Assembly (NCBI GenBank): GCA_964489065.1 | Contig: CAZAXH010000003.1 | Coordinates: 191,104 to 255,103, forward strand | DNA length: 64,000 bases | Reading direction: 5' to 3' | From: an uncultured Planctomycetales bacterium | GTDB taxonomy: Bacteria; Omnitrophota; Gorgyraeia; Zapsychrales; JANLHA01 | Shown here: positions 4,603-62,585 of the stretch, in pieces | Position numbering within the stretch: position 1 is the first letter of the stretch | Layout: the number at the start of each line of letters is the position of its first letter | Translations under genes and position numbers: made by a program | The notes under the pieces: model-generated | Seen by the model: the letters and a program-made list of their open reading frames with translations, nothing else | Databases searched by the model: none | Told to the model about the DNA's origin: nothing

Positions 4603-4607
4603 TATTT

Positions 4608-4761
4608 TATTCAATGAGCATTGAATTTACACGACCCAGGGGAGTGTAAATTCAAAATGCGAATTGATCCTTCAACGAGAGAGCCCAAGCGAACGAGTCG
4701 AAGGATAGTGGTTGAATACCCTGCTTGCTGTGGTTAATTGAGTGCAGAACTTGCTCTGGGG
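4608..4761 (+). ncRNA. Structured intergenic repeat element, full copy 1 (module A = two hairpins, module B = second hairpin pair). Candidate novel ncRNA or MITE
   Basis: tttattcaatgagcatt, then hairpin gaatttacac-gacccagggga-gtgtaaattc, then aaaatgcgaatt, then hairpin gatccttc...gaaggat, then module B ggttgaataccctgcttgctgtggttaattgagtgcagaacttgctctgggg. The same architecture recurs at 52126 and, on the minus strand, at 12782. Confidence 0.6.
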
Positions 4762-4786
4762 GTTATACCTTTGATTTCCGATACGC

Positions 4787-9595: not shown

Positions 9596-9692
9596 AGAAA
9601 CGCTCCTTTGTATGGTATTGCGTTATAACTATAACATACCTAAAAGTTCCTGTGTAAGAAAATGGAATAAATTGAGGGGGGAATAATTTTTG

Positions 9693-9720
9693 TTGACCGC
9701 TTAATGGATTATGGTAATAT
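9693..9720 (+). promoter_or_regulatory. Sigma70-like promoter upstream of tRNA-Glu (TTGACC, 16-nt spacer, TAATAT)
   Basis: Good -35 and -10 hexamers sit about 55 nt upstream of the tRNA. Confidence 0.45.
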
Positions 9721-9776
9721 TTAAAGTTAACAGCCCGGCGTTTTTCGAGGGAGAATGGCCGGGTGGTGAGGATTTT

Positions 9777-9854
9777 GGCCCCATCGTCTAGCCTGGTCCA
9801 GGACGTATGGTTCTCAGCCATAAAACGCCGGTTCAAATCCGGCTGGGGCTACCA
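9777..9854 (+). tRNA. tRNA-Glu (anticodon CTC) with encoded CCA
   Basis: Acceptor ggcccca/tggggct, D-arm tcGTCtagcctggtccagGACg, anticodon stem tatgg/ccata with loop ttCTCag, T-arm gccgg-ttcaaat-ccggc, 3' ACCA. Confidence 0.85.
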
Positions 9855-9864
9855 ATTTGAAAAT

Positions 9865-9899
9865 AAGGGACACCCTTTTTTGGGTGTCCCTTATTTTTT
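9865..9899 (+). terminator. Rho-independent terminator after tRNA-Glu
   Basis: aagggacaccc-ttttttg-ggtgtccctt followed by a T-run. Confidence 0.8.
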
Positions 9900-10078
9900 A
9901 TGTCTCCCCGTTTGAACGGCCAGCGGAGCTACTGGCGACCGAGCCCGTCCTTTTAAAGCTTGGGAAGCAAGGGATCCGCGAGCACTTTAGTGAGCCAGCG
10001 AAATCCGGCTGGGGTTATATTATAAAAAAGTAAGTATTTCTTTGCAATATCGACTATAATAAAAAGAAGAAAACGCTT

Positions 10079-10372
10079 ATGAAATTAGATAAATCTGTAA
10101 GAATGTTTTTTTTAATTATTTTGGTTTTCTGCTTCTTGACGATTGCAACTCAAGGGCTTTTAGCCTTCAGTTGTGCTCAGGGTTGTTTCTGCTGCAATAA
10201 CGGGTGTCACTGCGCTTCTAATGTCTTGTGTTCTAACTCTGTTATCATGGCGCTTTTAGCAACAAATTTTTTCATAAGCAATGTCCTGGATTTTTCGAAT
10301 AGGATCTATTCTGAAAGCAATTTTCTTTATTTTTTTCTGTCGACCCGCGACATCTTTCATCCTCCGCGTTAA
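10079..10372 (+). CDS. Small Cys-rich protein with signal peptide, lying in an AT-rich islet
   Basis: Hydrophobic N-terminus ending LLAFSC, then CAQGCFCCNNGCHCASNVLC. Its -10 box and RBS context (actataat ... atgaaa) duplicates that of the next gene. The C-terminal half is low-complexity, so the true length is uncertain. Confidence 0.4.
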   Translation: MKLDKSVRMFFLIILVFCFLTIATQGLLAFSCAQGCFCCNNGCHCASNVLCSNSVIMALLATNFFISNVLDFSNRIYSESNFLYFFLSTRDIFHPPR

Positions 10373-10422
10373 GACTTCTTATCTTCGTTCACTATAATCA
10401 GAAGAAAAAGAAGGAGTCTATC

Positions 10423-10632
10423 ATGAAACAATTATTGCGTTGTGTTTTGCTGGCTTTGCCGCTCATGATGATGTCGGCCGTTAGTTTTTCCGGCTGTGCG
10501 ACAACGATGGAAACTTGTCCTTGTCAGGACGGAGCGGCCTCGAAGGATAAAAATTGTTCTTGCGACTGCGGTTGTCAAGGACAAGCAGGGTGTCAATGTG
10601 CTGTGGGGAAACAGTGCTCCCCATGTAAGTAA
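10423..10632 (+). CDS. Cys-rich (metallothionein-like) small lipoprotein or possible precursor peptide
   Basis: Signal peptide ending in the lipobox-like FSGC. The mature portion CATTMETCPCQDGAASKDKNCSCDCGCQGQAGCQCAVGKQCSPCK has 14 Cys in 45 residues, arranged as CxC, CxCxCxC and CxxC. Confidence 0.6.
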   Translation: MKQLLRCVLLALPLMMMSAVSFSGCATTMETCPCQDGAASKDKNCSCDCGCQGQAGCQCAVGKQCSPCK

Positions 10633-10654
10633 AGCACGTTAATCAACTGCATTT

Positions 10655-10688
10655 AGGGCCGGTCAAAGACCGGCCCTTTTTTATTTTT
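10655..10688 (+). terminator. Rho-independent terminator after the Cys-rich lipoprotein gene
   Basis: gggccggtc-aaa-gaccggccc followed by tttttatttt. Confidence 0.75.
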
Positions 10689-10916
10689 AAATCTCCTTGA
10701 GGAATTTTTGCTGTATGCCGAGTTCATTCCTCGTGTCCTTCCATCGGCAGGAACTCCTTTGTTTTGCATGTCTTCTCGATCTCTTACATCACTGCGCTCA
10801 AAGCAAATCCGGCCGGGGCTCCCTGTGCCCCCCAGCGATTGAATTATTACCGGGGGTTCTTCCTGTTTCCCATATTTTTGTCTTGGGCGTATAATAATGA
10901 AAAAGAGAGGATACAC

Positions 10917-12503
10917 ATGTTCCCTTCCGCTCGAGAACAAAGATACCGATTCCGCGTTATCATCCCCGCCTATCCGTCTTTTAATATCTATTCAGGCTTG
11001 GCAGACAAGACAACAACCTTGGGCGCGGTTGCTGTGGCTACGGCTGTTCATAAGACAGCCGACTGGGATGTTGAGGTCATTGATGAGAATAATCTGCGGA
11101 GGTACGGCCCGAGAGTATCCGGGACAGGCGCAGACCACGAGTTTCTTCAGGCCCAGCGGCCTGCCGATGTCATTGGGCTATATGGAGGGCTGACAAGCAC
11201 CATTCCGCGTCTTTATGAAGTGGCGCGTTTTTATAAAAGCTGGAATAAAAGAATCGTGACAATCGCAGGCGGCCAGCATTTTGTTGAAGAAACCATCCCC
11301 GAAGCGTTAAATTCGGGGGTTGATTATATTATTCTGGGTGAGGCAGAAGAAACGGTCAAAGAGCTGCTTGGGAGTTTTCAGAACAAGAATGATGTGAGCG
11401 CGGTTAAAGGGATCGCTTATCTAAAAGAAGGCAAAGTGGCGGTGACTCCCCGCCGGGAGCCGATTACGGATTTTGAGAAGCTGCCGTTGCCGGACTTTTC
11501 TCTCGTGCGCTATGCAAACATTAAGGTTTATCCTGTTGAACGGATTCGTGGGTGCGGAATGAATTGCGAGTTTTGTACTGTGAAAGGGCGGCCGCGGTGT
11601 GCGTCCCCCGAGAGGCTCATGGCGCAGATTAGTTTTATCGTTGAAACCCGGGATGCCCGGCATTTTTTTGTCGTGGACGATCTGTTTGGTCAGCAGCGGG
11701 AGGAGACGATAAGATTTTGCCGCCTCCTTCGGGAATATCAAAAAAATATCGGGCGGAGGCTGGATTTTACCGCGCAGATCCGTTTGGATAAGGCGAGGGA
11801 CAGGGAATTGCTTTCCGCGATGCGTGAAGCGGGCATCAACATGGTGGCCATTGGCTACGAGTCGCCTATTGAAGAAGAATTGAAAACGATGCAGAAGAAA
11901 ATGCACCCCGCGGAGATGATCTCTTTGACGAGGTTATTTCATAAGCACGGATTTCTGGTGCACGGGATGTTTATTTTTGGCTATCCTTTGGAAGAGGGAA
12001 GGCTTGTCAGAATGTCTATGCAGGAACGGCTCAAAAGGTATCGGCAATTTATTAAACAGTCCCGTATTGATACGCTTCAGGTTTTGCTTCCGGTCCCCTT
12101 GCCCGGAACGGAGTTGCGAGAACGATTACAGCGGCAAAAAAGGGTTTTTCCTTTGGAGGATGTGGGCTGGGAATATTATGATGGCAATTTCCCGCTGTTC
12201 AGGCCGGATGAGCCGATGACGCCAGAAGAAATGCTTTATGCCGTGCGCAGCCTGATGGGCGGGTTTTATCAATTCCGCTATATGTTTAAAGTGGGGCTTA
12301 ATATTTTTTGCTTCCCCGCATTGCTTTTTTATCTGCATAATATCCGCTCCGGCTGGAGGAAATGGTACCGGTCCTGGCGCAATGATTTGATTCGTATCGG
12401 CGGCTGGTTTATCGTGAAGGGCTGGGCCGAAGCCTACAAAAGGGAGACGTTCCCGGGAAAACTAGCAAGGGCGCAGAAGCATTTGAAACAACAAGCTCAT
12501 TAA
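10917..12503 (+). CDS. B12-binding-domain radical SAM enzyme (class B rSAM)
   Basis: N-terminal cobalamin-binding Rossmann-like segment (RVIIPAYPSFNIYSGL...DWDVEVIDEN...IVTIAGGQHF) and rSAM cluster motif CGMNCEFC (Cx3Cx2C). Start set at MFPSAREQ, which has a GAGAGGA ribosome-binding site. Confidence 0.75.
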   Translation: MFPSAREQRYRFRVIIPAYPSFNIYSGLADKTTTLGAVAVATAVHKTADWDVEVIDENNLRRYGPRVSGTGADHEFLQAQRPADVIGLYGGLTSTIPRLYEVARFYKSWNKRIVTIAGGQHFVEETIPEALNSGVDYIILGEAEETVKELLGSFQNKNDVSAVKGIAYLKEGKVAVTPRREPITDFEKLPLPDFSLVRYANIKVYPVERIRGCGMNCEFCTVKGRPRCASPERLMAQISFIVETRDARHFFVVDDLFGQQREETIRFCRLLREYQKNIGRRLDFTAQIRLDKARDRELLSAMREAGINMVAIGYESPIEEELKTMQKKMHPAEMISLTRLFHKHGFLVHGMFIFGYPLEEGRLVRMSMQERLKRYRQFIKQSRIDTLQVLLPVPLPGTELRERLQRQKRVFPLEDVGWEYYDGNFPLFRPDEPMTPEEMLYAVRSLMGGFYQFRYMFKVGLNIFCFPALLFYLHNIRSGWRKWYRSWRNDLIRIGGWFIVKGWAEAYKRETFPGKLARAQKHLKQQAH

Positions 12504-12781
12504 TTCCCGCGTTCCCAGAAGGCCGGGGGCTTGTTTTGCTCATGCCCGCAATAAATAATCATGGTGTTTCTTCAGGGGGTAGGTTAGGTTTAAAATGATA
12601 GCTATTATAGGCGAAAAAGAGTATACTTAACTTGCATCACTTAAATAGATAAGTCCTGCCGCGCAGATCTCTTGATCTTCTTTCCTGATATCTGTCAGAT
12701 ATTCCATCTATTTATTTTCGATATTTAAGAAATACGAAAAGGAAATCCTGTTTTATCCGAGGAGTCAATGAAAGGCATGAA

Positions 12782-12927
12782 CCCCAGAGCAAGCTCTGGA
12801 CTCAATGAACCGCAGTAAGCTGCGGGGTATTAAATTAATATCCTTCAACTCGTTTGCTGAAGGATCAATTCTTATTTCTAGTTTACACTTCCTTAGGCCG
12901 TGTAAACTCAATGCTCGTCGAATAAAC
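12782..12927 (-). ncRNA. Structured intergenic repeat element, full copy 3 (modules A and B), minus orientation
   Basis: Its reverse complement reads ttcgacgagcattgagtttacac-ggcctaaggaa-gtgtaaactagaaataagaattgatccttcagcaaacgagttgaaggat...ttaataccccgcagcttactgcggttcattgagtccagagcttgctctgggg. Confidence 0.6.
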
Positions 12928-12935
12928 GGGGGGGG

Positions 12936-13142
12936 ATGATGTCAAAAGGCAAGATAAAAGAATATGATCCCCATCACGGGTGTGGGATCGTTGTCGATAT
13001 TGACACGGGGCAGGAGTTAACGGTTTACGCAAATTATACCAATTTAAAAGACAGGGAAGTTTTGACGGCAGGCCGGGACGTCGAATACGAAATAAAAAAT
13101 AACCGGCACGATAATTGGGCGGTTAATGTAAGGGTCTTATAA
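12936..13142 (+). CDS. Cold-shock-domain-like small nucleic-acid-binding protein
   Basis: 68 aa. GKIKEYDPHHGCGIVV...GQEL...VEYEI...AVNV follows the CspA-type OB-fold pattern (G.VKWFN.KGFGFI...G..V.F......A.NV), though it is divergent. Confidence 0.45.
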   Translation: MMSKGKIKEYDPHHGCGIVVDIDTGQELTVYANYTNLKDREVLTAGRDVEYEIKNNRHDNWAVNVRVL

Positions 13143-13486
13143 GAATATTCAAGAAGCATGGCTTTCGCGCCTATGGGCGAGGGGTCTATGAACACTTCGT
13201 TTCGTGGCACGGCCTGTTTGTTGAACGCGCGAATATCCCCGCAGCAGAAGACCTTGTTAACCGCATGTGTTTATCCATGGGCATGTCTGTGGTTTTCCGC
13301 GAAGGCAGATAAAAACAGGAGCAAAAAGATTAACCCTTGTTTAAGTTGTAAGGGATTAATATTAGCGAAGGGAGGGCCGTTTGAGTCATGCTTTGATTAT
13401 GTGCTGAAGATGAAAAAATGAAGTAAAAAACAATGACTTGCCGGGAAATTTTTTCTGGCATCAAATTAAACTGTGAGGGGGATAAA

Positions 13487-13795
13487 ATGAAAATATACGT
13501 TGGTAATTTTTCATATGATGTGACGGAAGAAGAATTAAGGGCTGTCTTCGAACCTTTTGGCCAAGTCGAGTCGGCCAGAATTATTAAAGATAAGTTTTCG
13601 GGAGAGTCTAAAGGGTTTGGCTTCGTGGAGATGCCGGATAAAACGGCCGCCCAGGCTGCGATGCAAGGGATTACAGAAATTAAGGGGCGACGCGTGACCG
13701 TCAATGAGGCCCGCCCGCAGCAGAGTCATTCTGGGCCATCAAGAAAAGGCGGGTTTGGCAAATTTAATTCTCCCCGGAGAGAGCGGAGATATTAA
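13487..13795 (+). CDS. RRM-type RNA-binding protein (Rbp-like) with Gly/Arg-rich tail
   Basis: RNP-2 IYVGNF and RNP-1 KGFGFVEM, with the C-terminal tail GGFGKFNSPRRERRY. Start set at MKIYVGN, which has a GAGGGGGA ribosome-binding site. About 340 nt of leader lie upstream. Confidence 0.85.
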   Translation: MKIYVGNFSYDVTEEELRAVFEPFGQVESARIIKDKFSGESKGFGFVEMPDKTAAQAAMQGITEIKGRRVTVNEARPQQSHSGPSRKGGFGKFNSPRRERRY

Positions 13796-13959: not shown

Positions 13960-13982
13960 ACGGGCTTGTCTATAACCCCCTC

Positions 13983-14110
13983 CTTTGCCCTGTCCCTGAA
14001 TGGGGCCAGTCCCCTTGAGGGGACTGGCCCCGTAACGCGTAACGCACTATCTGTAACCTAACCCCCTGCTATTGAGAGATTGCAGGGGGTTTTTGTTTGA
14101 GGTAGAATGA
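13983..14110 (+). repeat. Intergenic repeat module T1 (GC hairpin, intrinsic terminator, then a -10-like box)
   Basis: cctttgccctgtccctgaatggggccagtcccc-ttga-ggggactggccccgtaa ... ccccctgc-tattgagagat-tgcaggggg-tttttgtttg-aggtagaatga. Terminator core at 14062-14098. Homologous copies at 47431, 51214 and 49361. Confidence 0.75.
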
Positions 14111-14158
14111 CTTCTGGAGACTTGAGCATCGTTTTAGATACCGACGAAGGAGGCTGGC

Positions 14159-42539: not shown

Positions 42540-43193
42540 ATGAAGAGATTATTCGACATTATATTTTCATTGTTCGGGCTGGTGGTGTTTGCCCCGCTTA
42601 TGGGGGCCTCGGCTGCGCTCATCAAGCTGACGTCCCCGGGCCCGGTGATTTACGCGCAGAAACGGGTGGGCCTGCATGAGCGGATTTTTGATGTTTACAA
42701 ATTCCGCTCCATGGTGGATAAAGCCGATACTTTAGGGACGTCGGTCACCACCGGGGTCGACCCGCGTATCACGCCGATCGGGCGGTTTCTGCGGAAGACC
42801 AAATTCGATGAGCTGCCCCAACTGTTTAACGTGCTTAAGGGCGACATGAGTTTTGTGGGTCCGCGGCCGGATGTTCCGGAGATCACTTCGAAATATACCC
42901 CCGATATGAAGCGTATCTTTATGATCCGTCCGGGCATCACCAGCGTGGCCACGCTGCATTTCCGGCACGAAGAAGAGATTTTGGCAAAGGTTAAGAACCC
43001 CGACGAGTTCTATGACAGGGTTGTCGTGCCTTTAAAGGTGGATCTGGCCATGGAACACGTCCGAAAGAATTCGTTTTCTTTCGATCTGCTGATTTTGATC
43101 CAGACGGTCTGGGTGCTGACCCCGTTGGGCAGAATATGGCCGGTCAAAGAACATAATTCGGTAAAATTATTCAGGGAGAAATACGCGTTATGA
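42540..43193 (+). CDS. Undecaprenyl-phosphate sugar phosphotransferase (small PglC/WbaP-C-type initiating transferase)
   Basis: Single N-terminal TM, then KRVGLHERIFDVYKFRSMV...FVGPRPDVPE, the bacterial sugar-transferase catalytic motifs. Confidence 0.9.
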   Translation: MKRLFDIIFSLFGLVVFAPLMGASAALIKLTSPGPVIYAQKRVGLHERIFDVYKFRSMVDKADTLGTSVTTGVDPRITPIGRFLRKTKFDELPQLFNVLKGDMSFVGPRPDVPEITSKYTPDMKRIFMIRPGITSVATLHFRHEEEILAKVKNPDEFYDRVVVPLKVDLAMEHVRKNSFSFDLLILIQTVWVLTPLGRIWPVKEHNSVKLFREKYAL

Positions 43194-47419: not shown

Positions 47420-47430
47420 ATTAAAGACAA

Positions 47431-47575
47431 CCTGTCCTGCCCTGTCCCTGAATGGGGGCCAGTCCCCTTGGGGGGACTGGCCCCGTAATCGTTAACTTAA
47501 CGGTAAGGTACTTTAACCCTCTGCGATTGAACAATTGGAATAATTGCAGGGGGTTTTTCTTTGGTGTACAATGGG
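47431..47575 (+). repeat. Intergenic repeat module T2 (GC hairpin plus intrinsic terminator)
   Basis: cctgtccctgaatgggggccagtcccc-ttgg-ggggactggccccgtaa ... ccctctgcgattgaacaattggaataattgcaggggg-tttttctttgg. Homologous to T1. Confidence 0.75.
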
Positions 47576-47589
47576 GAACAGTTTTTCAG

Positions 47590-47656
47590 AAGCCGGGATA
47601 TTGGTTTAATACCGCGCAGCCTGCTGTGGTTCATTGAGTCCACAGCTTGTTTTTGG
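47590..47656 (+). repeat. Partial copy of the structured repeat element, module B only
   Basis: ggtttaataccgcgcagcctgctgtggttcattgagtccacagcttgtttttggg. Compare module B of copy 1 (4706-4761) and copy 3. Confidence 0.55.
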
Positions 47657-47711
47657 GATTTTAATAAAGAAGGGTTATCCGGTTTGTTGCTAATTTGGGA
47701 AGAAAGTTTTT

Positions 47712-49227: not shown

Positions 49228-49360
49228 GAAATATTTGAAAACAAGAAGGTACGTCCCAGGGACAGCTAACAAAAAGAGTGCTTCTCCCCGTCATCGTAAT
49301 GTCCGAGCATATTTTGGGCTAGGTTTGCTGGCTCTTCGGCGTCCAAGTGCCGGGGCCGCT

Positions 49361-49400
49361 TCCTTTGCCCTGTCCCCCAGTGGGGACTGTCCCTTTTGGC
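49361..49400 (+). repeat. Degenerate partial copy (T4) of the T-module GC hairpin, at the left edge of the low-GC islet
   Basis: tcctttgccctgtcccccagtggggactgtccc against T1 tcctttgccctgtccctgaatggggccagtcccc. Confidence 0.5.
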
Positions 49401-51213: not shown

Positions 51214-51290
51214 TGTGGGGACTATCTGTAACCTTCTGCGATTGATTCATTGCAGGGGGTTTTTATTTGGGGTAGAATGGAAAAGATTTC
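51214..51290 (+). repeat. Partial intergenic repeat module T3 (terminator half plus ggtagaatg box) just upstream of lepB
   Basis: ggggactatctgtaaccttctgcgattgattcattgcaggggg-tttttatttgg-ggtagaatgg. Compare T1 ctatctgtaacctaaccccctgctattgagagattgcagggggtttttgtttgaggtagaatga. Confidence 0.7.
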
Positions 51291-51305: not shown

Positions 51306-52133
51306 GTGGGAAAATCGCAACCTAAAGATCCTTTCATCGCCCTCATGTTCTCTTTCATTTTTCCCGGGTTCGGGCAGATATACTCCGGGAGAATCAAAAG
51401 AGGTGTTTTCTTTTCATTAGCGCATTTGAATTTTATCCTGGCCCTGCTGCTGGTTATCTTTCATCCCACGAAGAAATTAAATCATCATATTTTGTCCCCC
51501 GTTTTTCTCTTTGTCCTTTTTGAGACTTTTGTGGTCCTGGACGCGTATCTTTACACCAAAAATTTGAAGTACCCCTTTAAGAAAACGTTTGTCCGGGTCG
51601 TCCTGATCCCTCTCGCCACCGTGATTTTCGTGCTTGTTTTTAATTTGAACATTCTTTTGGCGGAAATCGTGAACAAATTTATTGTGCTGGCGCCCAGGAT
51701 CGTGTCGAATTCCATGAGCCCCGTGTTGGTGGAAGGGGATTGGTTTCTGGTGAACAGATTCCGGTATTTGGCGGGGGCGCCGGAACGGGGGGATATTGTG
51801 TTTTTCGTCTTCCCGAAAGACAAAAGCAGGGTTGTCGTCAAAAGACTGATTGCCAAGGAGGGCGAGTCCGTTGAAATCAAAGACGGCCGTATTTATGTCG
51901 ATGACCAGCTCGTGGCAACTCCCGGCATAGCGGATATTTATTACTTCAATGGGGGCGACTTCGGCCGGGCTAATCAGGTGATAAACGTGCCGCAGGGCCA
52001 ATACTATGTTCTCGGTGATTACAGCGAGAAAAGCACGGACAGCCGTTTTTGGGGATTTGTCCCGAGAAAAAATATTATCGGGAAAGCTTATAAGATAGTT
52101 TATCCTTTTGAGCGGTCCGGATTTATTCAATGA
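51306..52133 (+). CDS. lepB: Signal peptidase I (S26 family) with an extended multi-TM N-terminus
   Basis: SNSMSPVLVEGDWFLVNR has the catalytic Ser. VVKRLIAKEGESV has the catalytic Lys. GDYSEKSTDSRFWGFVP is box E. Confidence 0.85.
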   Translation: MGKSQPKDPFIALMFSFIFPGFGQIYSGRIKRGVFFSLAHLNFILALLLVIFHPTKKLNHHILSPVFLFVLFETFVVLDAYLYTKNLKYPFKKTFVRVVLIPLATVIFVLVFNLNILLAEIVNKFIVLAPRIVSNSMSPVLVEGDWFLVNRFRYLAGAPERGDIVFFVFPKDKSRVVVKRLIAKEGESVEIKDGRIYVDDQLVATPGIADIYYFNGGDFGRANQVINVPQGQYYVLGDYSEKSTDSRFWGFVPRKNIIGKAYKIVYPFERSGFIQ

Positions 52134-52250
52134 GCATTTAGTTTACACGACCCAAGGGAGTGTAAACTAGAAATGCGAATTGATCCTGCGCGAGAGAGCT
52201 AAAGCGAACGAGCCGCAGGATGCTGGTTTACTCCTGATTCAGGGAAAGGA
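52126..52250 (+). ncRNA. Structured intergenic repeat element, copy 2 (module A complete, module B truncated). It overlaps the lepB stop codon
   Basis: tttattcaaTGAgcattta-gtttacac-gacccaaggga-gtgtaaac-tagaaatgcgaatt-gatcctgcg...ccgcaggat-gctggtttactcc. Confidence 0.6.
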
Positions 52251-61869: not shown

Positions 61870-62585
61870 ATGTTTTTATTAAGGAAGAGGAATTTGTTTT
61901 GTTTGCTTATTGGGTTTTTAACGTTCGGAGGGGCGGCGCTTACTCTTCCCTCTAGCGCCGTGGCTGCAAAAATTAAAGCGCCGGCGGAACTGATCGCGCC
62001 GGAAGAAGTCGTGGTCCTTTCTTCTGAGGAGGTTGTGTTTCGTTGGACGGAAGGGAGCTCGGTCAGCCGTTATCGCCTGGTGATCGGCACACAGCCGATG
62101 GGTGCGGAATCAAAGAATATTTTTATACAAACATTTAAAAAAGAGAGCATCAGGCGGTTGTGACTTCTCCTGCCTTTGTTAGCGGAGAACCGGTTTATGT
62201 CAAGCTGAGGTCCAAAATACAGAATCGGTGGGTCACCCAGAGGTATGTTTTTCAGACACAGGCTATTCCGACGCAATGTGGGGATGGCATCTGTCAGCCG
62301 GATGAAGGTTACGCGTTGTGCGCGGTGGATTGCCCTTCGCCGTTGTGCGGGAATGGAATCTGCTCAGCCGAGGACGGGGAGAATGGGATCAATTGCCAGC
62401 CGGATGAAGGCCATGTGCTGTGCGGGGTGGACTGCCCTTCGCCGTTGTGCGGAAACGGTGTTTGCTCGGCCATGGACGGGAAGATGGGACCAATTGTCAG
62501 CCGGACTGCGTGGAAACGCCGTAGTGGTTACGAGAAAAAGTTGATTGTATCCCATTGTTGCAAGCGGTTTTTTTGTCTTTTTTGA
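61870..62585 (+). pseudogene. Exported Cys-repeat protein split by a frameshift at 62160, with a second shift inside the third repeat
   Basis: Signal peptide plus beta-rich domain (61870-62163), continued in the +1 frame by SGEPVYVKLRSKIQNRWVTQRYVFQT and two perfect repeats CQPDEG..LC.VDCPSPLCGNG.CSA.DG. A third repeat is shifted by a 1-nt deletion. Confidence 0.5.

Follow-up and report, generated by a model that had tools for sequence, protein, structure and literature searches.

The locus considered here raises the question of whether three adjacent genes form one functional unit. It lies in a 64,000-nucleotide stretch of contig CAZAXH010000003.1 (assembly GCA_964489065.1, from an uncultured bacterium placed by GTDB in the Omnitrophota), which was analysed at its full length and is referred to as the window. 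Two small genes coding for cysteine-rich mini-proteins with export-type N-termini, the open reading frames (ORFs) ORF1 and ORF2, are followed on the same plus strand by the gene of a class-B radical S-adenosylmethionine (rSAM) protein (ORF list of the region; coordinates in Table 1). An initial annotation had proposed either a metallothionein tethered to the membrane, or a ribosomally synthesized and post-translationally modified peptide (RiPP) system with the rSAM protein as maturase, and had remarked that an adjacency of this kind is often functional. The best overall explanation, to which a probability of about 0.6 is given, is that ORF1 and ORF2 constitute a mobile cassette in a transfer RNA (tRNA) hot spot, that they would act as an envelope metal-thiolate module, and that their position beside the rSAM gene is accidental. 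The genomic part of this explanation (real genes, a conserved pair, cargo of an insert, and no link to the rSAM gene), taken alone, can be held with considerably more confidence. The novelty of the locus is this rare mobile two-gene cassette of exported Cys-rich mini-proteins.

The origin of the adjacency is evident from a close relative (GCA_029559195.1, contig JAKQCK010000003.1, fetched as the segments L105 and L004). Synteny with L105 extends from window position 1234 to exactly 9854, the last base of a tRNA-Glu gene (94% identity, blastn), and restarts with L004 at position 10812, continuing at 92% identity through the rSAM gene to 12926. Between these identical junctions there are 957 bp in the window versus 9,065 bp in the relative (record positions about 79253–88317), and the island of the latter encodes a serine recombinase of the resolvase type (PF00239), a Methyltransf_21 protein, a SRAP fragment, and an 825-aa protein, among others. 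The same long island begins in a third assembly (L107). The arrangement of the window is not an assembly chimera, since it is reproduced across both junctions, at 99.96–100% identity, by two assemblies obtained independently from separate sequencing runs (L001 and L002). In addition, the last 20 nt of the tRNA-Glu gene recur twice downstream of it (16/20 and 18/20 identical positions), the insert starting at the last base of the tRNA and ending inside the 18/20 copy; in shuffled sequence, no match to this 20-mer was found at up to three mismatches. The interval between tRNA-Glu and the rSAM gene is an integration hot spot whose cargo can be exchanged, this strain carrying the Cys-rich pair there. 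The initial annotation had guessed acquisition for the first, AT-rich gene; the guess was right, and it applies to both small genes, which lie in one insert. The GC content of ORF1 is 36.7% (4th percentile) versus a window mean of 48.0%, and the insert as a whole is mildly AT-rich (42.3%).

Several observations concern the same interval. The two copies of the tRNA end were considered as pseudo-tRNAs and rejected as such, the similarity covering only about 20 nt, and a permissive Rfam search of positions 9600–11000 gave the tRNA alone, with no riboswitch or small RNA. The 825-aa protein of the relative's island has no Pfam domain, and the last ~30 nt of its gene lie within the sequence shared with the region upstream of the rSAM gene of the window. 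With regard to known elements, the insert has in common with tRNA-linked islands that it abuts the 3' end of a tRNA gene, that a repeat of this end marks the far junction, and that a close relative carries other cargo at the same place. It differs from them in its small size and in the lack of an integrase or recombinase gene (ORF1 and ORF2 are the only genes of its 957 bp in the ORF list), and the recombinase of the relative's island is of the PF00239 type instead of the usual tyrosine integrase.

The two small genes have also been found together elsewhere. The 621-bp contig L003 aligns to window positions 10190–10785 with 76% DNA identity and holds the 3' two thirds of ORF1 together with ORF2. 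In all 62 codons of the alignment the ORF1 frame is uninterrupted there, and the stop codon follows HPPR as it does in the window; dN/dS (nonsynonymous to synonymous rates, Nei–Gojobori) amounts to 0.25 in ORF1 and to 0.29 in ORF2, and all cysteines are retained in both. In four further contigs (L016–L019), the gene of the ORF2 homolog P0122 always lies 28 nt 3' of an ORF1-type gene; the latter is complete (102 aa) in L016 and L017, whereas in L018 and L019 it runs off the contig. The ORF1-type gene of L016 shows the same N-terminal hydrophobic helix, the same C-x3-C-x-CC-x3-C-x-C-x5-C spacing, and the same DIFHPPR end, DIFHPP being encoded with a synonymous change (CCT to CCG). ORF1-type and ORF2-type genes are thus adjacent and in the same order in three lineages; a −10-like box precedes each small gene, and a strong terminator closes the pair. 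These comparisons identify ORF1 and ORF2 as real genes under purifying selection and argue firmly for two separate families, both very rare, whose members travel together. Downstream of the pair in L016 come a DUF772/DDE transposase gene and, after it, a polysaccharide pyruvyl-transferase gene, an arrangement that again points to mobility. The pair is best read as one mobile two-gene cassette, present here as strain-specific cargo 3' of tRNA-Glu(CTC).

A different view of the insert would be that both frames are either chance ORFs or what is left, in a decaying or non-functional state, of an integrated element that has degraded. Decay is indeed suggested by the lack of a recombinase gene in the insert and by the degenerate copy of the tRNA end within it; moreover, neither frame was called by the gene callers on L001 or L002, and the differences at the three codon positions of ORF1 (18/14/22) show only a weak third-position bias. 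Nevertheless, this explanation is very improbable, given that both frames and their stop codons are kept at the DNA identity and dN/dS values mentioned above, that the motif cysteines and DIFHPP are invariant among sequences as low as 29–35% identical, that the pair is conserved in three lineages, and that ORF2 has both a good ribosome-binding site (RBS; AAGGAG) and a terminator.

Neither ORF1 nor ORF2 has a match in Pfam (E≤1), NCBIfam, PHROG, PADLOC, or the PDB, nor in a plasmid collection (tblastn); NCBIfam "matches" of the small proteins to MagA and EscR were dismissed as noise (10–13 bits against cut-offs of 263–700). The earlier description of the two proteins as paralogous has little support, with E=0.05 over 11 residues in BLASTP and a probability of 15% over 20 columns of the Cys segment in hhalign, and paralogy was not accepted. 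The similarity of their promoter and RBS contexts is real. Both genes are preceded by ACTATAAT, an A-rich AAAAAGAAG, and then ATGAAA (repeat families D3/D4), and a perfect TATAAT within 60 nt upstream was found at only 4 of the 36 gene starts examined in the window (ORF1, ORF2, rSAM, and one other), so that such contexts are no common feature of this genome. The hydrophobic N-terminal stretches close with AFSC (ORF1) and SFSGC (ORF2), in line with the claimed FSC and FSGC.

With regard to composition, ORF2 contains 12 cysteines, 11 of them in the 45 residues that start at Cys25 (24%), and not 14 in 45 as had been counted. Its mature part is rich in Gly, Gln, and Ala, lacks F, W, Y, and H, and shows CxC/CxCxCxC spacing. 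Relatives are exceedingly scarce. P0001, encoded on L003 (72% identity), was the sole one found in a word-indexed search of 5.8 billion proteins, and an exhaustive HMMER search with a two-sequence ORF2 profile against 1.84 billion cluster representatives returned four matches at E<0.001, namely P0001, P0122 (65 aa, 49% identity to ORF2, E=1.5e-12), P0124 (75 aa, 38%, E=1.2e-4), and one unrelated repeat protein. A genome scan with the ORF2 profile gave no relative among 285 pattern matches, and viral contigs gave no match for ORF2. The single match of a metagenome scan with the profile (L015) was rejected, its target being a 387-aa OmpA-like lipoprotein in which the similarity is confined to the signal peptide. 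The lipobox was defined as in PS51257 (charged N-terminus, hydrophobic core, and [LIVMFWSTAG](2)-[LIVMFYSTAGCQ]-[AGS]-C, re-implemented here), and a pattern of this type is present in all four family members (SFSG|C in ORF2, SFAG|C in P0001, ALAA|C in P0122, and FFTG|C in P0124). In their mature parts, of 41–56 aa, 21–27% of the residues are Cys, set in CxC/CxCxCxC arrays, and aromatic residues or His occur no more than once; their net charge ranges from 0 to +6, some being cationic. P0124 is a loosely related Cys-rich lipoprotein encoded directly 3' of a PIG-L family deacetylase gene on a GC-rich contig of a different organism (L020 1194–2258), where tblastn revealed no ORF1-type partner.

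ORF1, in turn, is not dominated by cysteine as had been stated: it has 8 Cys in 97 aa, and its C-terminal two thirds are free of Cys yet conserved. Its homologs are L016:67-375, the partial copy of L003, and two distant members obtained in an ORF1 profile search, P0125 and P0126 (102 and 105 aa), which keep DCACCN..C and DIFHPPK. The family is characterized by a hydrophobic N-terminus of 20–22 residues, an invariant 7-Cys motif, a moderately hydrophobic region, and a terminal DIFHPP[RK], with the Cys motif and DIFHPP invariant in the five sequences. Since only the window copy (1 of 4) fits the lipobox pattern, the ORF1-family proteins are more likely to be signal-anchored or cleaved by signal peptidase I. 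A candidate relative on viral contigs (L104) was rejected as a chance match, consisting of 20 residues in an implausible overlapping ORF of a GC-rich contig. As a separate observation, TATAAT stands only 6–9 nt before the ORF1-type ATG in L016 (positions 55–69) and L022 (364–377), compared with 18 nt in the window, which suggests that the ORF1-type transcripts of these two contigs may be leaderless or near-leaderless.

If the two small genes form a unit, does the rSAM gene belong to it? The protein was correctly recognized as class B with an intact Cx3Cx2C motif: PF02310 and PF04055 are matched with 48.3 and 42.2 bits (cut-offs 32.1 and 29.5), the motif reads CGMNCEFC, and the gene starts at the ATG in position 10917, in agreement with full-length relatives, and not at an upstream TTG. 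Loci bearing this gene were compared in five lineages (95, 79, 78, 78, and 74% identity) and in 80 GTDB species representatives (L004–L014, L024–L103, and L108–L111), and the cassette was looked for within about 5 kb of the rSAM gene. With six ORF1- and ORF2-family queries (tblastn), no homolog of either small gene was found in the other fetched rSAM loci, nor was any comparable small exported ORF with at least 6 Cys found next to the rSAM gene in them; conversely, the L016 contig around the cassette has no rSAM gene. The co-conservation that the initial annotation proposed to look for has thus been sought and is lacking in the fetched rSAM loci. The boundary of the insert falls between ORF2 and the rSAM gene, and the same interval contains a strong terminator, already noticed in that annotation and confirmed here, followed by a separate rSAM promoter. 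The −10 box and the 5' untranslated region of the latter (TATAATAATGAAAAAGAGAGG) are conserved in relatives without the cassette (L004, L108, and L109–L111).

These data bear directly on the RiPP reading, in which the class-B rSAM enzyme would methylate or cross-link the Cys-rich peptides in the cytoplasm before export. The physical adjacency of the genes on one strand speaks for it, and so does a weak likeness of the rSAM protein to models of RiPP C-methyltransferases, below cut-off (TIGR03975, 70.7 bits versus 281.85; ApyD). However, none of the properties expected from a precursor and its maturase was found, that is, co-conserved neighbours, no terminator or promoter between the genes, and a recognition or SPASM domain: Pfam gives only the B12-binding and Radical_SAM domains, without any RiPP recognition element (RRE)/PqqD-like or SPASM/twitch domain. 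Besides, both peptides carry Sec-type signals, which are atypical of RiPP precursors. It had been said beforehand that finding either partner without the other in all relatives would speak against this reading, and the pair does occur without the rSAM gene on the L016 contig, as does the rSAM gene without the pair in the other loci fetched; together with the terminator of ORF2 and the promoter and 5' untranslated region belonging to the rSAM gene itself, this lack of co-conservation makes the RiPP reading highly improbable. The adjacency is best explained as an accident of strain-specific insertion at the tRNA hot spot, and not as a functional one.

A parallel to such a pair, though a superficial one, would be the SCIFF systems and similar pairs (TIGR03973/TIGR03974; ranthipeptides), in which a Cys-rich peptide of about 45 residues is also encoded beside an rSAM gene. 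ORF1 and ORF2 show no match to TIGR03973 beyond noise (NCBIfam), and the co-conservation that defines SCIFF pairs is absent for the cassette and the rSAM gene. SCIFF-type maturases are SPASM-domain rSAM proteins and not B12-binding class-B enzymes, and SCIFF-type precursors are not known to have a signal peptide. Separately, in one locus of another Omnitrophota genome (L069 7638–7748), an ORF of 36 aa that contains 9 Cys and lacks a signal peptide (MCDTCGCTPCKKCGKPVEKGVCSGCRKKASECVCKK) was noticed about 1.1 kb 3' of the rSAM ortholog; its sequence is unrelated to ORF1 and ORF2.

The rSAM protein is instead a housekeeping class-B enzyme unrelated to the cassette. More than 2,367 homologs were found at E≤1e-20, the named ones mostly from Candidatus Omnitrophota and the best 120 listed being 66–95% identical, and there are 467 matches among GTDB species genomes, some of them binned as Planctomycetota; this distribution marks it as a core gene of Omnitrophota, outside the insert. 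No NCBIfam equivalog was reached. The best similarities are to BchE, HpnJ, and the methyl-coenzyme M reductase (MCR) glutamine C-methyltransferase, which likewise combine an N-terminal B12-binding domain with a radical SAM core bearing Cx3Cx2C, but scores of 86–105 bits are far below the cut-offs of 360–578; the protein differs from them also in forming its own family (about 65–95% identity in Omnitrophota and some Planctomycetota) and in its hydrophobic or aromatic C-terminal tail. Its neighbours are not conserved, the commonest being a DEAD-box helicase (12 of 84 loci), an ABC ATPase (11/84), and an RNA recognition motif (RRM) protein (9/84), and no frequent neighbour in the 84 loci hints at its substrate. 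It was also observed that in several lineages the gene lies beside genes of the cold-shock or RNA-chaperone type, coding for cold-shock domain (CSD) and RRM proteins, IF-1, and DEAD-box helicase (window 12936–13142 and 13433–13795; L012/L109 4.5–5.9 kb; L108 1–478 and 2200–3402). The association is loose but recurs, and it might point to co-regulation or to a role of the enzyme related to RNA or translation.

Regarding the function of the cassette itself, ORF2 would be exported through Sec and lipid-modified at Cys25, and the protein, tethered in this way to the membrane in the cell envelope, could soak up soft metals or carry them. The other ten thiols of ORF2, spaced as CxC/CxCxCxC in a chain without aromatic residues, would bind soft metal ions as thiolate clusters in the manner of metallothioneins. 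ORF1 would be anchored by its N-terminal helix, exposing the 7-Cys motif and DIFHPP[RK] outside the cytoplasm, and may be the membrane partner of ORF2 in metal hand-off, loading, or retention. The membrane-tethered metallothionein of the initial annotation is hence in part retained: it is plausible for ORF2, with a lipobox-type signal in 4/4 family members, 21–27% Cys, and CxC motifs, and it is left without a match to any known metallothionein family or a metal gene nearby. Envelope metal-thiolate binding by ORF2 is, in this sense, plausible from its composition, and metal binding by the cassette proteins in general is considered a tentative assignment, with chances somewhat below even.

The comparison with the nearest known analogues shows both likenesses and differences. 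In a broad sense, by composition, ORF2 is metallothionein-like (45 aa, 11 Cys, no F/W/Y/H), and the sequence of its predicted signal agrees with the lipobox of bacterial lipoproteins. With the bacterial metallothioneins SmtA/BmtA (PF02069) and MymT it shares a small size, a Cys content of about a quarter, CxC motifs, and few or no aromatic residues, and a short segment, GC[HQ]CA, resembles what we take to be PCHCA in MymT. It differs from them in that no sequence model is matched (PF02069 included), in its lipobox-type signal, and in the accompanying membrane partner gene; ORF2 also lacks the His and aromatic residues that belong to the zinc-finger-like fold of the SmtA type. Bacterial metallothioneins are not known to be synthesized with a signal peptide, and a phrase search of the open literature gave no bacterial example of an exported or lipid-anchored one. 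Csp1, with which methanotrophs store copper, offers a further comparison: this exported bacterial protein holds a soft metal on many Cys thiolates outside the cytoplasm, as is predicted for ORF2. Csp1 is a helical protein of about 120 aa, a Cys-lined four-helix bundle exported by the twin-arginine (Tat) pathway without lipid anchor. ORF2, in contrast, has a mature form of 45 aa rich in Gly, Gln, and Ala, a Sec/lipobox-type signal, and no sequence similarity to Csp1.

The same two proteins could be accounted for in other ways. ORF2 might be a secreted disulfide-rich toxin or bacteriocin and ORF1 a small membrane immunity or export partner, carried on mobile DNA, which would suit a small exported peptide encoded beside a small membrane protein, the mobile and strain-specific context, the extreme rarity of the pair, and the cationic charge of some mature peptides within the range of 0 to +6. 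This is unlikely, since CxC/CxCxCxC arrays with 21–27% Cys and no aromatics are typical of metal-thiolate proteins and not of disulfide-knotted toxins, with a lipobox the peptide would stay attached to the producer cell, an immunity protein would not need the invariant 7-Cys motif of ORF1, and no processing or export genes are found nearby; in addition, the hosts appear to be anaerobic, and periplasmic disulfide formation would be less usual there. Slightly less probable still is that the proteins are exported and thiol-rich for a purpose other than metals, such as redox or thiol buffering, sulfide or polysulfide handling, or binding of Fe–S clusters. The composition fits this role exactly as it fits metal binding, and no cassette context contains metal-resistance genes; against it, the proteins have no similarity to known Fe–S, thioredoxin-like, or sulfur-carrier families, and no adjacent redox partner genes exist.

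Returning to the mobile cassette with an envelope metal-thiolate function, a number of findings weigh against it. For the function, no metallothionein or metal-binding family is matched by ORF1 or ORF2 (Pfam, NCBIfam, PDB), and no metal-resistance or efflux gene or metal-sensing regulator lies near the cassette in the window, L016, L020, or L022. The lipobox Cys of P0122 is at the same time the first Cys of its CPC motif, and some members of the ORF2 family may therefore not be lipidated. An AlphaFold2 model of ORF1 from a three-sequence alignment was uninformative (predicted local distance difference test, pLDDT, 55; predicted template modelling score, pTM, 0.32) and was not used. For the genomic part, the dN/dS values come from a single sequence pair (window versus L003), and the insert as a whole departs only modestly from the GC content of the window (15th percentile). 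Most cassette-bearing contigs are shorter than 3 kb, and therefore a distant linkage of cassette and rSAM gene in those genomes is possible. Finally, because no recombinase is encoded in it, the insert would be a remnant or a passively recombined segment.

Table 1. Features of the locus between window positions 9777 and 12503.
Feature	Position	Strand	Remarks
tRNA-Glu(CTC)	9777..9854	+	ARAGORN and Rfam (57 bits); insertion target; synteny with the close relative stops at its last base
Strain-specific insert ("islet"), 957 bp	9855..10811	.	From comparison with the relative and two spanning assemblies
Perfect 16-bp inverted repeat, terminator-like	9860..9897	+	Directly 3' of the tRNA; terminator-like site 9865-9877 within
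Partial copy of tRNA-Glu 3' end, 16/20 (14 nt exact)	10000..10019	+	Inside the insert; repeat family D1
TATAAT box	10055..10060	+	18 nt 5' of the ORF1 start codon
ORF1, 97 aa	10079..10372	+	N-terminal membrane helix or signal; C-x3-C-x-CC-x3-C-x-C-x5-C; C-terminal DIFHPPR
ORF2 promoter-like site (TTAAGA, 18-nt spacer, TATAAT)	10369..10398	+	Overlaps the end of ORF1; conserved in L003
ORF2, 69 aa	10423..10632	+	Lipobox-type signal SFSG|C25; 45-aa mature part with 11 Cys, metallothionein-like composition
Intrinsic terminator 3' of ORF2	10655..10687 (stem 10655-10677)	+	10-bp stem with 8 G-C pairs, then T-run; conserved in L003
Copy of tRNA-Glu 3' end, 18/20	10804..10823	+	attR-like right junction; homology of the relative restarts at 10812, inside the repeat
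rSAM promoter-like site (TTCCCA, 17-nt spacer, TATAAT)	10867..10895	+	5' untranslated region TATAATAATGAAAAAGAGAGG conserved in relatives
Class-B (B12-binding) rSAM protein, 528 aa	10917..12503	+	Outside the insert; not part of the cassette

Other features of the window and of the close relative have been recorded. Two families of short interspersed intergenic repeats (about 40–170 bp, 65–91% identical) have copies at 4606–4776, 12767–12926, 47596–47657, and 52122–52187 (first set) and at 13976–14119, 47428–47583, 49356–49396, and 51229–51289 (second set). The copies at 4606–4776 and 12767–12926 are inverted and bracket an 8-kb segment with the tRNA, the insert, and the rSAM gene, and the L001 and L002 contigs break exactly in such repeats, which may be elements similar to miniature inverted-repeat transposable elements (MITE-like). 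A 414-bp segment with a small CSD gene (12927–13340) is missing from the otherwise collinear relative, where L004 8025/8028 joins window 12926 to 13341. Likewise, about 33.5 kb (13888–47436) are missing between the same flanks, L004 8576 joining 13887 to about 47437. This segment holds three genes or fragments with near-identical N-termini of the bacterial sugar transferase type (39111, 40646, and 42540; PF02397 confirmed for 42540–43193) and looks like a variable polysaccharide-synthesis region. Finally, a tandem 102-bp repeat (81% identical) at 62292–62484, within the ORF at 62160–62585, encodes the Cys-rich unit CQPDEG..LC.VDCPSPLCGNG.CS, with no Pfam match.

The locus is of interest as a caution for genome mining: a Cys-rich peptide gene beside an rSAM gene looked like a RiPP system, and a single relative revealed that the adjacency had been made by insertion at a tRNA hot spot. 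The rSAM protein, uncharacterised and about 65–95% identical across Omnitrophota, deserves study, although not as a peptide maturase. The two small-protein families are unannotated and very rare, and they would define two new families. It may even be that ORF2-type proteins are the first natural lipid-anchored envelope metallothioneins of bacteria, forming with ORF1-type proteins an undescribed, horizontally mobile two-component system that captures soft metals or hands them off outside the cytoplasm in Omnitrophota and neighbouring uncultured anaerobes, a proposal that is rather doubtful. If ORF2 does bind metals, a metallothionein-like protein would be held outside the cytoplasm by a lipid anchor, together with a dedicated membrane partner.

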